Position numbers and translations under genes: made by a program. From contig JACPOY010000004.1 of NCBI GenBank assembly GCA_016191245.1, positions 3,159 through 67,158 on the forward strand: 64,000 nt of DNA, in the 5' to 3' direction. Positions 19,001-23,129 of the stretch are shown piece after piece; position 1 is the stretch's first letter; each line of letters begins with the position of its first letter. The notes under the pieces are model-generated. The model ran no database searches. It was not told where the DNA came from and worked only from the letters and a program-made list of their open reading frames with translations. Origin of the DNA: Gammaproteobacteria bacterium. Lineage in GTDB: Bacteria; Pseudomonadota; Gammaproteobacteria; Berkiellales; Berkiellaceae.

Positions 19001-20176
19001 ATGAGTGAAATTAAATTCGATATCTCGATGGATCCTGACAATATTAACCTTCCTTCAAAAGTAATACATGAAGAAAGTACTTCATTTATTGATGAAGAAG
19101 GGTTACTTCCCGGAACATCAGAATCACGTGAGACAAGTGGTTTTCTAGCACTTTCTTATGGACAAACTCAACCTTCAGTTATTCAATTTGCTCCAATCGC
19201 AGATCAACAAGCATTAGTAAATATGGCATTAACTTCAAAAGGGGCAAATTTACATTATGAATTAATGCATAACAATCAGTTACTCGTGGCAACGCAAGGT
19301 GAAACTGACAATGCTGTGTTTACCGTACATTTGGACAAAAATGGAAGTTACACTTTTACTTTGCACAATCATTTAGATAGAACTTCTCCTCCAAATCTTG
19401 TCGCAAGCACTGAGCCTTCTCAAAACATTCATACTCAGCCTGGGGAGCTCTACCAACTTACATTTTATCATCAAGGGCATACTTCAGCTCAAAATGAAGC
19501 GAATGACGTCCAAATTTATTGGGGAGATAATTTAATTTACACTTTACCCTCAACAAAAAGTGAGGGTAAGGGTTATACATTTTCAGTTGAAGGTGTAGCG
19601 GGAGCAGATACGACTAAGTTGCAATTTGTGAGTACTGGTAATGAACATGCAATCAAAGACACCATTCATGATGTTTCTGTAATGAGTACGGCCCAAAACA
19701 AAGTACCCATTGATTTTGCCTATGTTGTCGCTGATATGCAAGGAAATGAAACACATGGTCAATTCACGGTTAATATAACAACAACTCCTCCTATCCAAGT
19801 AAGTAATCACGAACCTTTTGATGTAATCTTTGAACATGGAGTTTATCAAACAATTATCGTAAGCGATGGCAATGCGCAACATAATCCTCTCACAACCATA
19901 AACCTTGATAATTTATTTAATCATCTTGCAATTTCAGCTGAAAATCGAGTTGTAGAAGTTGTTCAAAGAGAAGAAAATGGTTTTGCCACGAATGTATACG
20001 AAGTGAAAATATCTGATAAAAGCCAATCCCTCGTTCCTATCACCGTTGCTGATGTGCAACTTTCATTTCCCGGAGGCGATGGAGGTCTACATGTTTTTCA
20101 ACGTAATATTTTCATAGAAGAAGGAGGCAGCAATTTAATGCCGCCTCTTGGACTTGGACACGATCATTTAGCCTAA
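19001..20176 (+). CDS. Compact protein built from RTX/T1SS-adhesin-like modules
   Basis: No signal peptide; FTVHLDKNGSYTFTLHNHLD and FAYVVADMQGN resemble Ig-like T1SS repeats; a jelly-roll-like segment (PGELYQLTFY...YWGD); C-terminal INLDNLF region. Confidence 0.6.
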   Translation: MSEIKFDISMDPDNINLPSKVIHEESTSFIDEEGLLPGTSESRETSGFLALSYGQTQPSVIQFAPIADQQALVNMALTSKGANLHYELMHNNQLLVATQGETDNAVFTVHLDKNGSYTFTLHNHLDRTSPPNLVASTEPSQNIHTQPGELYQLTFYHQGHTSAQNEANDVQIYWGDNLIYTLPSTKSEGKGYTFSVEGVAGADTTKLQFVSTGNEHAIKDTIHDVSVMSTAQNKVPIDFAYVVADMQGNETHGQFTVNITTTPPIQVSNHEPFDVIFEHGVYQTIIVSDGNAQHNPLTTINLDNLFNHLAISAENRVVEVVQREENGFATNVYEVKISDKSQSLVPITVADVQLSFPGGDGGLHVFQRNIFIEEGGSNLMPPLGLGHDHLA

Positions 20177-22954
20177 CTATTCAAAATGTGCCAATGCTAC
20201 CTGCGGTAACACTTCTTGCTGCATCATTACAGCATTACATACAGCAACAGGCTGAAAGCTTGAAATGTCCTGTTTGCCTTCGATAATTGAACCACCACCT
20301 TCTTGTAATCCTGGGATCTCATCTGGAGACTGAATCATATCTGCCATTGAAAGTGACGATCCTTTCTTTGTGATATCCTTTACAAAACTTTCCACTTCGG
20401 CTATTTCTTGAGTTGATAAAACCGTTGATGACTTCTTCGTCTCTAATGCTCCATTTGCTACATCTTCACTTTTATGATCAACCATTGATTTCGCAAATTC
20501 TTTAACTACAACTTTTTCTTGCGATATTGGCAAAGATTGTGATGTAGGATCTTCATCTTCCCAATCCGAATCCTCTTCATCTTCTTCTTGATCATCAGCA
20601 ATGCCAACTCGTCTTAATTGCAAGGCGGCTGCCAATGACGATTGAATAGGTTGGGTGTCCACTGGTTTTGATTCAACAGATTGATCATCTCCATCATGAA
20701 CGATGTCTTTTATCACATCTTTATCTGCCATTAAATTTTTTGAAAGTTGATCAACAGCAAATTTGCTATATGATTCGCTTGTATTTAAACCCTCTGTTTT
20801 AGATAGATATTTAGTTTCTTCACTTAATATTGTGCCCATTTCAATTTTTACTTTGTCATACATTTTCACTTGAAGATCATGATCAAACTGAGCTAAGAGC
20901 TTTTCAACAACTGATGCTTCGATAGATTCTTTTAAATTTATTTTATGAACTAGAAGCTCAGCCATATTTTCTGCATAGTATGATTTTGAACTTTTATCTC
21001 CATGACTAGTAAGTTGTTGTTTAATGAGAAGATCAATTTTTTCTAACATTTCTGAAATTTTGCTTTCAATTTTGATAGATTTTTCTGAATCTACTTTAAT
21101 ATCTGCACTTAGGCGAGCATGGTATAATTCTATTGCTGTTTTAATAACAGGAGATTTAGAGCGTACAAGTTCTTGCAAGTCAATCGATAATTTTTCTTGA
21201 AAGGATACGCTATTTAATTTTTGTGAAATAGTTTCACGAATGAGGGCAGTATTTGTAGCAATAAGTGCTTCTTCTTTTTCTTCATTTTCCCAAAAATTAT
21301 CAATATCAGCATCTTCCTCATCGACATGCTTTGCGGAATATTTACCACCTTCAGTTCTGGCTGATACATTTTCCATAGCTTTGAAAAGCAAATTTTTCAC
21401 TCCATCCCCACTATCTTTGCCTTTCTCTGCACTATGCTTTTCTACTGTTACCCGCTTAAGCTGTTTAGCACCCGTTACAAATTCATTCGCAGAAATAGCA
21501 AAAACTGTCTTTGTTGCTTTTGGTTCTTGCTTTTTTGACGTTTCACCGGTTGCTGTTTCAACAGGGGCCCATGTTTTAGTAACTTTTGTTGATACTGGTA
21601 GTGGCGGTGGTAATGGAGGAGGCGTAAATGACGTCACATCATTTGATTGTTCATTAATTATTTCAGATACAAAAGCATCAACTGCCTGCTTTTCCTCAAC
21701 AGTTAAGCTTTCCCTCGTGTTTGATTCATCCTCTACCAATTCCGATACAAAGGTTTCGACTTCAGTTTGCTGTTGTGTGCTTTCTGGTGTTTCTTCAACT
21801 GATTCTTTAGTTGCTTTTTCTTGGATAAGTTGTTTTTGCTTAGCAAATTGCTCTGCAGAAATGGCAAATTTCGGCCTTTGAGGGATGACGGCCTCTATCT
21901 GCGGAGCTTCAACCTTAGATTTATCCTCTACCAATTCCGATACAAAGGTTTCGACTTCAGCTTGCTGTTGTGTGCTTTCTGGTATTTCTTCAACTGATTC
22001 CTTGCTTGCTTTTTCTTGGATAAGTTGTTTTTGCTTAGCAAATTGCTCTGCAGAAATGGCAAATTTCGGTCTTGGCTGTGCTACCGGCACCACTGGAGAC
22101 AGAATAGCAGGCTCAACTGAAATCTTATCTTCGTGCGTTATTTCCATGGAAGCTGACATCTTTCCATGCTTATGATTCATTTGTGGTGCTTCACGAGGAT
22201 CTATGCCTCGCAACAAATATACTGTATCTGACTGGAACGGACCCCGGTCAGGATGAACATTAAATACTTTATAAGGTAATCTTGCTTTTTCTTGTGCAAC
22301 CACATTTTCTGCAGCAGGTATTACAACGAGAGGGAATATAGGCTTATCATTTTGTACTACAGGCACTACCTCTTCAACAATCGGTGCTACCTCTTCAACA
22401 ATCGGTGCCACCTCTTCAATAATCGGTGCCACCTCTTCAATAATCGCGACTATCTCAGGGATTTTTGGCGCATCATCAAAAATAACTTGTTTTTCTTGGG
22501 AAACTTTCCAAGCAGTAATATTTACATCATCACTTTGATATGGCTGGAAAGTGAAAATATCTGCATCCAATTCAAATTTTTCATGTACATCGGAAAAACT
22601 AAACCCATCATATGTATATGTAGTGGGAGCGAATTCAAAAAATTTAACTTGAGAATTTACATGATCAATTTGAACAATTTCTAATCTTCTAAAAGTATTC
22701 CCTAATTCACCCGCCATATCATTAGACTCTGTAGAATCTAATTCCATGAGTTCATTGAGCAATTTGGCATCACTTTGCTCTTCATTTACGAGCGGAAGAT
22801 CTTTTAAAATCTCTGGAATTTCATACTGATTTACATTTTGTTTATGATCATCTTTAAACAGACTCTTCACTTCATTCCATACTTGTGAAAAATCGTGTAT
22901 ATCACCAAAATTGCTAAATTTTACAAATAAATCATGTAGTTCTTGCGCACTCAT
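20177..22954 (-). CDS. Orphan acidic protein (~925 aa) with polyproline, WH2-like and two central/acidic-Trp motifs
   Basis: Start taken at MSAQEL (ORF track extends to 23083); PPPLPPPLP, NEFVTGAKQLKRVT, DEEDADIDNFWENEE, LAAALQLRRVGIADDQEEDEEDSDWEDED. Confidence 0.8.
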   Translation of the reverse strand: MSAQELHDLFVKFSNFGDIHDFSQVWNEVKSLFKDDHKQNVNQYEIPEILKDLPLVNEEQSDAKLLNELMELDSTESNDMAGELGNTFRRLEIVQIDHVNSQVKFFEFAPTTYTYDGFSFSDVHEKFELDADIFTFQPYQSDDVNITAWKVSQEKQVIFDDAPKIPEIVAIIEEVAPIIEEVAPIVEEVAPIVEEVVPVVQNDKPIFPLVVIPAAENVVAQEKARLPYKVFNVHPDRGPFQSDTVYLLRGIDPREAPQMNHKHGKMSASMEITHEDKISVEPAILSPVVPVAQPRPKFAISAEQFAKQKQLIQEKASKESVEEIPESTQQQAEVETFVSELVEDKSKVEAPQIEAVIPQRPKFAISAEQFAKQKQLIQEKATKESVEETPESTQQQTEVETFVSELVEDESNTRESLTVEEKQAVDAFVSEIINEQSNDVTSFTPPPLPPPLPVSTKVTKTWAPVETATGETSKKQEPKATKTVFAISANEFVTGAKQLKRVTVEKHSAEKGKDSGDGVKNLLFKAMENVSARTEGGKYSAKHVDEEDADIDNFWENEEKEEALIATNTALIRETISQKLNSVSFQEKLSIDLQELVRSKSPVIKTAIELYHARLSADIKVDSEKSIKIESKISEMLEKIDLLIKQQLTSHGDKSSKSYYAENMAELLVHKINLKESIEASVVEKLLAQFDHDLQVKMYDKVKIEMGTILSEETKYLSKTEGLNTSESYSKFAVDQLSKNLMADKDVIKDIVHDGDDQSVESKPVDTQPIQSSLAAALQLRRVGIADDQEEDEEDSDWEDEDPTSQSLPISQEKVVVKEFAKSMVDHKSEDVANGALETKKSSTVLSTQEIAEVESFVKDITKKGSSLSMADMIQSPDEIPGLQEGGGSIIEGKQDISSFQPVAVCNAVMMQQEVLPQVALAHFE
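21729..22070. repeat. ~147-bp near-perfect duplication (period 195 bp) inside the 925-aa orphan
   Basis: Two copies encoding RPKFAISAEQFAKQKQLIQEKAxKESVEExPESTQQQxEVETFVSELVED. Confidence 0.92.
22366..22447. repeat. 21-bp tandem repeat (~4 units) encoding EEVAPI(I/V)
   Basis: CCTCTTCAA(C/T)AATCGGTGC(T/C)A units. Confidence 0.9.
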
Positions 22955-23129
22955 TGTCAAATTGCCCCAAAATAATAAATTTAAACTTTGGAACAATCTA
23001 ACAGTTAAGTTAATTTTATAACATATAAAATAGTATGATTTGCGACCGAACAACAACAAAGTCAGACAAATGGATAAATTCAACCTCTAGAAATGTACTT
23101 AGCGACGATGAAGTTTCATTCACTTATTT

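Follow-up and report, generated by a model that had tools for sequence, protein, structure and literature searches.

What is encoded by the 925-residue open reading frame (ORF) that lies directly downstream of ligA in a Berkiellaceae genome, and to which Pfam, NCBIfam and the PDB offered no significant match? The ORF (positions 20177..22954, minus strand) is contained in a 64,000-nucleotide stretch of contig JACPOY010000004.1 (assembly GCA_016191245.1), referred to as the window, in whose numbering all positions are given. An earlier reading made from the letters alone (the sequence-only reading) had seen in this ORF a bacterial mimic of the nucleation-promoting factors (NPFs) of the Arp2/3 complex, with a polyproline tract, a WH2-like segment and two central-acidic modules. 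The gene product is referred to here as X (Berkiella WASP-like protein). Our analysis suggests that X is probably an undescribed family of host-actin effector. The reading we favor, with moderate confidence, is that of an exported effector that imitates the output module of an NPF: it would activate host Arp2/3, or at the least engage it, and would supply actin to it via its polyproline tract and WH2-like segment.

Motif organization of X

All features of X are encoded on the minus strand. The polyproline tract, TPPPLPPPLP (residues 444-453; 21596..21625), is a candidate site for profilin, SH3 or EVH1 binding, and is located upstream (on the N-terminal side) of the actin-binding motif; its proline columns were invariant across orthologs. 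It is directly followed by KTWAPVET (21554..21577), in which K-T-W-A was invariant among close orthologs, and whose counterparts are KKKW or RKKW in other orthologs and KPLAPVET in the unrelated protein P0013 (see below); we know of no NPF element that matches it. The next element is the degenerate WH2-like motif (V), FAISANEFVTGAKQLKRVT, at residues 485-503 (21446..21502). The sequence-only reading had placed LKRV correctly at 21449-21460, and had set the end of the segment slightly too far (~21505 instead of 21502). The amphipathic "central" helix (C1), VKNLLFKAMENVSAR, occupies residues 519-533 (21356..21400), and the acidic segment (A1), DEEDADIDNFWENEE, residues 545-559 (21278..21322), with Trp555 at 21290-21292. 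A1 is fused directly to an all-helical folded domain (residues ~550-755; 20690..21307), and beyond this domain a second central-acidic module (C2-A2), SSLAAALQLRRVGIADDQEEDEEDSDWEDED, is found at residues 772-802 (20549..20641), with Trp798 at 20561-20563. The computed coordinates of the polyproline tract, C1, A1, C2-A2 and both Trp residues all agreed with the sequence-only reading, and the helical spacer proposed between the two modules proved to be real: residues 550-755 were modelled by AlphaFold2 (AF2) as an all-helical domain with a pLDDT (predicted local distance difference test) of ~90. In the same model, which was built on a shallow alignment of 4 sequences, short isolated helices were found precisely at V (residues 491-501), C1 (518-532) and C2 (768-786) within disordered sequence. 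Short helices inside disorder are expected for linear motifs.

X contains 5 Trp in 925 residues, 2 of which are located within acidic runs: acidic residues occupy 5 of the 10 positions flanking Trp555 and 9 of the 10 flanking Trp798. Two or more Trp in an acidic context were rare among 20,000 composition-preserving shuffles of X (P=0.0055), as were two or more L[KR][KR][VT] motifs (P=0.0037). A crude proteome of the source genome, comprising the 2165 ORFs that are 150 residues or longer, was also scanned; two of these contained a polyproline tract and four a strict acidic-Trp motif, and X alone had both. The motif pattern of X exceeds what is expected by chance.

Distribution and conserved layout of the family

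Orthologs were collected by six-frame searches of related genomes and by inspection of the locus downstream of ligA. A syntenic ortholog was present in 13 of the 17 Berkiella genomes (G000-G002 and G007-G016, with an N-terminal fragment alone in G016), and the overall identity to X was 17-28%. Two genomes, G005 and G006, lack the gene at its syntenic site downstream of ligA, so that some Berkiella can dispense with X. In the incomplete G003, other genes lie downstream of ligA and X was not found, and neither was it in G004. Among 11 other genera of the family Berkiellaceae there was no full homolog of X, and short, weak matches to the polyproline region were obtained in G023 and G028 alone.

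When 1.84 billion representative proteins were searched exhaustively with a HMMER profile of the family, 12 matched: 10 members of the family, together with two further proteins, P0012 and P0013, described below. The family members include two metagenomic relatives, P0005 (1043 residues, closer) and P0003 (an 80%-identical fragment). Less sensitive routes led to the same small set or to nothing: a word-indexed homolog search with X returned itself alone, and with an 8-sequence profile P0002 and the fragment P0003 alone; a related-locus search of genome contigs found nothing with the single X sequence, and two loci and no more with alignment A2; a scan of metagenome contigs for relatives of X found nothing. 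To judge by these searches, the X family is restricted to the genus Berkiella, and X is a genus-specific and evidently fast-evolving protein.

In spite of an identity of 17-28%, the order and spacing of the motifs were retained in every member that spans the region: polyproline, K(K/T)W, a helix of the actin-monomer type, an amphipathic helix, an acidic-aromatic run, the helical domain, an RR-helix, often with a second acidic tail behind it, and the C-terminal tail. The middle of the protein consists of unrelated repeats in each species. The layout of polyproline, WH2-like segment, C helix and acidic Trp that had been proposed for X alone is thus a property of the family. The acidic run of module 1 ended in an aromatic residue in 13 of 13 members (Trp in nine, Phe in three, among them G013, and Tyr in one), and the C1 core, L..A(L/F/M), was likewise kept in all 13. 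Conservation of the Trp and LKRV residues in homologs was among the points on which the sequence-only reading was to be judged. The aromatic residue of module 1 stood in all 13 members; for LKRV, a motif of the L(K/R)(K/R/H)(V/T/A) type occurs in about half of the family, and the other half is without it.

At the V position, canonical WH2 motifs were found in five orthologs (ADLLAAITKGTALKKT, GDLLDAIKAGKKLKKV, MDLLEQIKAGKKLKHV, AFLAAIQKGMGLLKKM and SMMAEMGKVVLKKA), which align with FAISANEFVTGAKQLKRV of X. A variant, F-x-I-x4-F-A-x5-(L/I/M)K, is present in X, P0005, G008 and G010-G012, and G001 and G002 read NKFLDEIRA. A scan with profile hidden Markov models, which had been suggested as a check of the WH2 assignment, succeeded for an ortholog and failed for X itself: with Pfam WH2 (PF02205), G013 scored 23.4 bits (gathering cut-off, 23.1), and four others, G014, G015 and G007 among them, scored 15-17 bits (E 0.006-0.017 in these three). 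A separate scan gave Pfam WH2 matches in 2 of 8 sequences.

The second central-acidic module

When a profile of module 2 (13 orthologous segments) was compared with 177,635 PDB sequences, constructs of the central-acidic region (CA) of N-WASP made up five of the top eight matches, in register and with a best E of 0.11. These matches are individually not significant; a chance top rank of N-WASP CA is very unlikely, because few PDB sequences are CA peptides. Alignment of the profile with the WH2-central-acidic region (VCA) of N-WASP, the reference sequence of which was verified on PDB 6uhc_H, gave an hhalign probability of 83.5% over CA, and the lone Pfam match on this segment of P0005 was Myo1_CA (E 0.16). 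An RR pair in the helix is present in 10 of the 13 aligned segments. Module 2 of X (LQLRRVGIADD...SDWEDED) resembles the ILSRRIAVEYSDSEDD...DW type of WAVE. These results support the view that the second module fits the central-acidic pattern.

The further proposal that two CA modules fill both sites on Arp2/3 did not extend to the family: the second acidic tail carries Trp in only 5 of 14 members (X, P0003, P0005, G008 and G014), Phe or Tyr in 3, acidic residues only in 4, and is absent in 2, with no A2 in G001 and G002, so the two-module arrangement is not family-wide. An elaborate form of this proposal, in which one X polypeptide would hold two Arp2/3-binding CA modules in cis, ~240 residues apart, the WASP-like one fused to the helical bundle and the other of the WAVE/N-WASP type, occupy both activator sites without oligomerising (a "built-in dimer" NPF) and, delivered by Dot/Icm, drive actin-dependent transport of the vacuole to, or entry into, the host nucleus, appears doubtful.

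Proteins of similar architecture outside the family

P0012 and P0013 are unrelated to the X family and, by their motifs, are textbook polyproline-WH2-C(-A) proteins. P0013 (MES2204021.1, from a Pseudomonadota metagenome-assembled genome) consists of 1267 residues and ends with polyproline-KPLAPVET-SFLDAIKKGAPQLKTV-ITALLERRKFLEVE-SDSDEEEDAWDVD; P0012 (348 residues) contains a coiled coil, polyproline, NDLLAQIRAGGVKLRKA and GLMGALSRALRKRRGAI. Profile alignment (hhalign) of the X family with P0012 and P0013 gave 92-94% probability through polyproline and V, and for P0012 also through C, with polyproline contributing to the scores; V of X was placed on their WH2 motifs at this 92-94%, and C1 on the C helix GLMGALSRALRK of P0012. 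The C-terminus of P0012 is rich in Cys and His and may be a zinc finger, and the protein may be eukaryotic or viral. No relative of P0013 was found in 401 gammaproteobacterial genomes, a search that we count as uninformative.

Host biology and a candidate export signal

Members of the genus (Candidatus Berkiella) live obligately inside amoebae, in association with the nucleus; a Dot/Icm system and >200 predicted effectors are reported for them, with 17 of 27 dot/icm genes in strain CC99 (PMC9803151). In the source genome, DotB was detected at 572.9 bits (NCBIfam cut-off, 463.3). The C-terminal tail of X, IPGL ... PQV..AHFE (20180..20317), in which I880-P-G-L and the terminal P-Q...H-F were invariant in the alignment, is a candidate export signal, and related endings of the IPGL...PQVE.HVEQHFG type were found in all orthologs. 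It is from the biology of the organism and this conserved C-terminus that we infer export of X. The comparative-genomics paper on Berkiella nowhere mentions actin, WH2 or Arp2/3.

Endings of a similar kind were also observed elsewhere in these genomes. The C-termini of the 391-residue protein encoded next to X (..LPPIEHHFI, ..LPPLDHHFI and ..GLGHDHLA) resemble those of the X family (..MPQVEAHVEQHFG and ..PQVALAHFE), and the two may share a C-terminal export signal. A few other large ORFs of the genome have similar ends, e.g. ..PILPQIETVVTGEAHL.

Comparison with known actin regulators

X shares with WASP/N-WASP and WAVE/Scar the order of polyproline, WH2 (in X, a WH2-like segment), amphipathic C helix (in X, a putative one) and acidic segment with Trp; its module 2 aligns to N-WASP CA, and one ortholog reaches Pfam-level WH2. 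On the other hand, X has no detectable homology to the WASP family outside the motifs, and no WH1/EVH1, GBD/CRIB, SHD or WAHD domain was found in it with Pfam and NCBIfam. Its VCA lies inside the protein, joined to a helical domain of ~200 residues, whereas that of WASP, WAVE and RickA is C-terminal, and it has a second C(A) module, a degenerate WH2 and a genus-restricted bacterial N-terminal domain.

Rickettsia RickA is an Arp2/3 activator with a Pro-rich region and a C-terminal WH2-C-A. Like X, RickA lacks a Sec signal and is made by an obligate intracellular bacterium, and it mimics the output module of host NPFs, as X is proposed to do. The profile search detected no sequence relationship between the two, RickA not being among the 12 matches in 1.84 billion proteins. 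RickA comes from an alphaproteobacterium and X from a Legionellales-related gammaproteobacterium, and X differs further in its internal VCA, its added helical domain and its second CA. Listeria ActA, Burkholderia thailandensis BimA and baculovirus P78/83 also activate Arp2/3 with actin-binding, central and acidic elements, which are located away from the C-terminus in ActA and BimA. These pathogen proteins combine the same types of element as X, but are surface-anchored or viral capsid proteins for actin-tail motility, with unrelated sequence and another domain order. The module of X would work like those of WASP/WAVE, RickA, ActA and BimA, but X is, as far as its sequence tells, not a member of these families: it shows no homology to them, has no regulatory domains, and its VCA is not C-terminal.

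Among Dot/Icm effectors, Legionella pneumophila SidG has an internal acidic A domain that needs Trp442 and binds the Arp2/3 holocomplex (PMC12904589). SidG and X come from bacteria of the same broad order with the same type of secretion system, and in both an internal acidic-Trp segment is present, which in SidG targets Arp2/3. SidG, which disrupts the cytoskeleton, combines the A element alone with a Cys-His-Asp catalytic triad and gating by Rac1, whereas X adds polyproline, V and C; no similarity to SidG was found in the profile search of 1.84 billion proteins. MavH (PMC10381072), RavH (PMC13481308) and VipA (PMC3285593) are Legionellales effectors that assemble host actin via WH2-like helices and/or proline-rich regions. 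They differ from X in being Arp2/3-independent, in acting on PI(3)P (phosphatidylinositol 3-phosphate) membranes and in having no central-acidic module, and no homology between them and X was found. The Legionellales actin effectors in the literature thus comprise the WH2-like nucleators VipA, MavH and RavH, the inhibitors LegK2, WipA, Ceg14 and RavK, and SidG; in the literature searched, no polyproline-V-C-A activator mimic has been described from Legionellales or Berkiella.

Alternative explanations

Several observations weigh against reading X as an NPF mimic. X itself gave no Pfam WH2 match at E<=10 or E<=1, its spacing is off the consensus, and its own WH2 is, on this evidence, degenerate; V aligned with the second WH2 of N-WASP in the expected register, with a weak hhalign probability of 14.7%, and C1 with the N-WASP C helix IVGALMEVMQ, likewise in register, at 8.7%. 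The whole-VCA and module-1 profiles retrieved no WASP-family chain from the PDB; together with whole X and three single segments, they gave noise alone; short motifs with variable linkers escape detection in such searches, and alignment A4 was misaligned by MAFFT. Profile scores run too high in polyproline and in low-complexity acidic sequence. The acidic segments end at residues 559 (A1) and 802 (A2) of 925, and the VCA is internal and not at the extreme C-terminus; 6 of 14 members have no second acidic-aromatic tail, or one without the aromatic residue. The aromatic residue of module 1 could be conserved for structural reasons, since Trp555 stands at the very start of the folded domain (AF2 helix from residue 550, with pLDDT of 68 rising to 90) and the (W/F)..EEKEEALI block is kept as a unit. 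Neither a signal peptide nor a recognisable Dot/Icm E-block is present in X, whose gene is positioned among housekeeping genes.

Direct actin nucleation or elongation is the activity of VopL/VopF, TARP, Burkholderia pseudomallei BimA, and Legionella RavH and MavH. X may likewise act without Arp2/3, through WH2-like units (three in X, when those of a 65-residue duplication are counted) and polyproline joined by a dimerising bundle, with the acidic runs being incidental. The F-x-I-x(4)-F-A units are indeed repeated in X, P0005 and G011 (in G011, each after its own polyproline), orthologs have canonical WH2 motifs, the folded helical domain could oligomerise X, and Legionella provides precedents in RavH (PMC13481308) and MavH (PMC10381072). 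We consider this unlikely: most orthologs have a single V unit, and neither the acidic-aromatic run found after the C helix in all 13 members nor the second CA-like module, whose best match is N-WASP CA, would have a role in a WH2-only nucleator. The acidic-Trp segments could also bind Arp2/3 without activating it, X being a decoy, inhibitor or scaffold in the manner of Arpin, the NtA (N-terminal acidic) region of cortactin or Legionella SidG. The internal position of these segments is that of SidG and cortactin, unlike WASP, the WH2 of X is degenerate, and the known Legionella effectors mostly damp Arp2/3 (PMC13481308). However, the elements conserved upstream of the acidic segment (polyproline, C helices and WH2, which is canonical in five orthologs) are the set of an activator, and we regard a mere binder as quite unlikely.

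A very unlikely explanation is that X is not directed at the host at all, but is a disordered, repeat-rich bacterial protein tied to smc-zipA-ligA or to the envelope, with motifs that arose by chance in low-complexity sequence. Its conserved position amid housekeeping genes, its hypervariable repeats, the lack of significant Pfam, NCBIfam and PDB matches, and its dispensability, as two Berkiella genomes counted as complete are without the gene, are in line with this; a cell-division protein, suggested by synteny, was considered and ranked lowest. Such an explanation would have to account for four or five short motifs in conserved order across 13 divergent orthologs, a WH2 at the Pfam threshold in one of them, N-WASP CA as the top PDB match of module 2, a family profile that pulls independent polyproline-VCA proteins from 1.84 billion sequences, and a combination of motifs that is unique within the genome of an obligately intracellular organism (PMC9803151). 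On balance, X is a credible mimic of a nucleation-promoting factor.

Gene, neighborhood and remaining features

The source genome comprises 2.96 Mb in 30 contigs, and the G+C content is ~37% across the window. The start of X was assigned to MSAQELHD, because the N-termini of the orthologs share MS(A/V), and the stop codon is at 20177-20179 (ORF list and translation); an alternative TTG start at 23083 was rejected as unlikely, as the orthologs all open with MS(A/V)... at the same point. Comparison with P0003 (locus L024) gave a dN/dS (ratio of non-synonymous to synonymous substitution rates) of 0.28 over 261 codons, and X is therefore a real gene under relaxed purifying selection.

X is located downstream of smc, zipA and ligA (smc-zipA-ligA-X) and is convergent with a gene for a 391-residue protein, beyond which lie prmB and aroC. 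This neighbor (19001-20176, plus strand) abuts the ORF of X stop to stop, with 0 nucleotides between, and is syntenic in all Berkiella loci; it gave weak matches to T1SS_rpt_143, DUF5801 and DUF642, and to nothing else. Of the two genomes without X at the syntenic site, G006 (99% complete) also lacks this convergent gene and G005 (81% complete) retains it (loci L040 and L042). A scan for promoters and terminators gave the same counts as in shuffled sequences and allowed no conclusion, and inspection by eye upstream of X revealed no convincing regulatory repeat of the PmrA type.

The N-terminal domain (residues 1-~105; 22640..22954), with the motifs (V/I)PEILKDLP and N.FRR(L/I) in the ortholog alignment, was modelled by AF2 with low confidence, and its profile matched in Berkiella alone, always directly downstream of ligA. 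It is followed by a hypervariable spacer, in which Tandem Repeats Finder detected a 21-bp repeat in 3.8 copies (22368..22446) that encodes EEVAPI(I/V) heptads; in orthologs, unrelated repeats, e.g. AAEKA, VANGN and DAV, are found in the spacer. A 195-bp tandem duplication (21723..22073; 1.8 copies, 95% identical) encodes two RPKFAISAEQFAKQKQLIQEK units that echo the WH2-like helix, and its F-x-I-x(4)-F-A motif is likewise doubled in P0005 and G011. The helical domain is the sole confidently folded part of X and is present in all orthologs; from the model, a dimerisation or membrane-binding bundle is possible. When the AF2 model was compared with the PDB by Foldseek, nothing matched at E<=0.001 and the best hits were generic helical bundles; a BAR-like reading of the domain (Lsp1, E 0.024, TM-score 0.31-0.35) was rejected as unsupported.

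Two further ORFs with motifs of this kind were observed outside the window. Contig C11 of the same genome contains a 1391-residue ORF (minus strand) that opens with MPNDEDDWETDSEPVGKN and is one of the four ORFs with a strict acidic-Trp motif; its N-terminal DDWETD we take to be much like the Arp2/3-binding NtA motif of cortactin, and the ORF may encode a second Arp2/3-targeting effector. In the sister genus (G028, locus L018), a 684-residue minus-strand ORF that is not homologous to X contains three polyproline tracts, WH2-like GRAGLMAAIAQRG..LNTV and LGDIGDALSQLRKTKK, an acidic Trp motif, IDDDNSWIDW, and a C-helix-like AISRAMKARRDQV. On these motifs, mimicry of actin regulators seems to be common in the bacterial family to which Berkiella belongs.

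Proposed function and significance

As an NPF mimic, X would be exported into the amoebal host, most likely through Dot/Icm, the type IVB system of this bacterium. There, the polyproline tract would recruit profilin-actin or SH3/EVH1 proteins, and the WH2-like helix would hold an actin monomer, while helix C, which is amphipathic, and the Trp-bearing acidic segment would dock on Arp2/3, so that branched actin would be nucleated at the site of the protein. The helical bundle of ~200 residues would probably position or oligomerise X, and the WAVE/N-WASP-like C2-A2 may give this species and its closest relatives a second point of Arp2/3 binding. Together with export, then, what we infer for X is actin binding, and the binding and activation of Arp2/3.

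Bacterial NPF mimics are few (RickA, ActA and B. thailandensis BimA), and have taught much on Arp2/3 activation. If the proposed function is true, the X family would have arrived at polyproline-V-C-A independently, by convergence; the module is unusually placed, inside the protein, and a second CA accompanies it in some species. Its 13 natural variants would then form a mutational series (Trp/Phe/Tyr, canonical or degenerate WH2, with or without A2) on what Arp2/3 activation needs. Actin-based nuclear entry in other bacteria has been discussed (PMC6507137). An actin-assembling effector would be an obvious candidate for the association of Berkiella with, and its entry into, host nuclei.

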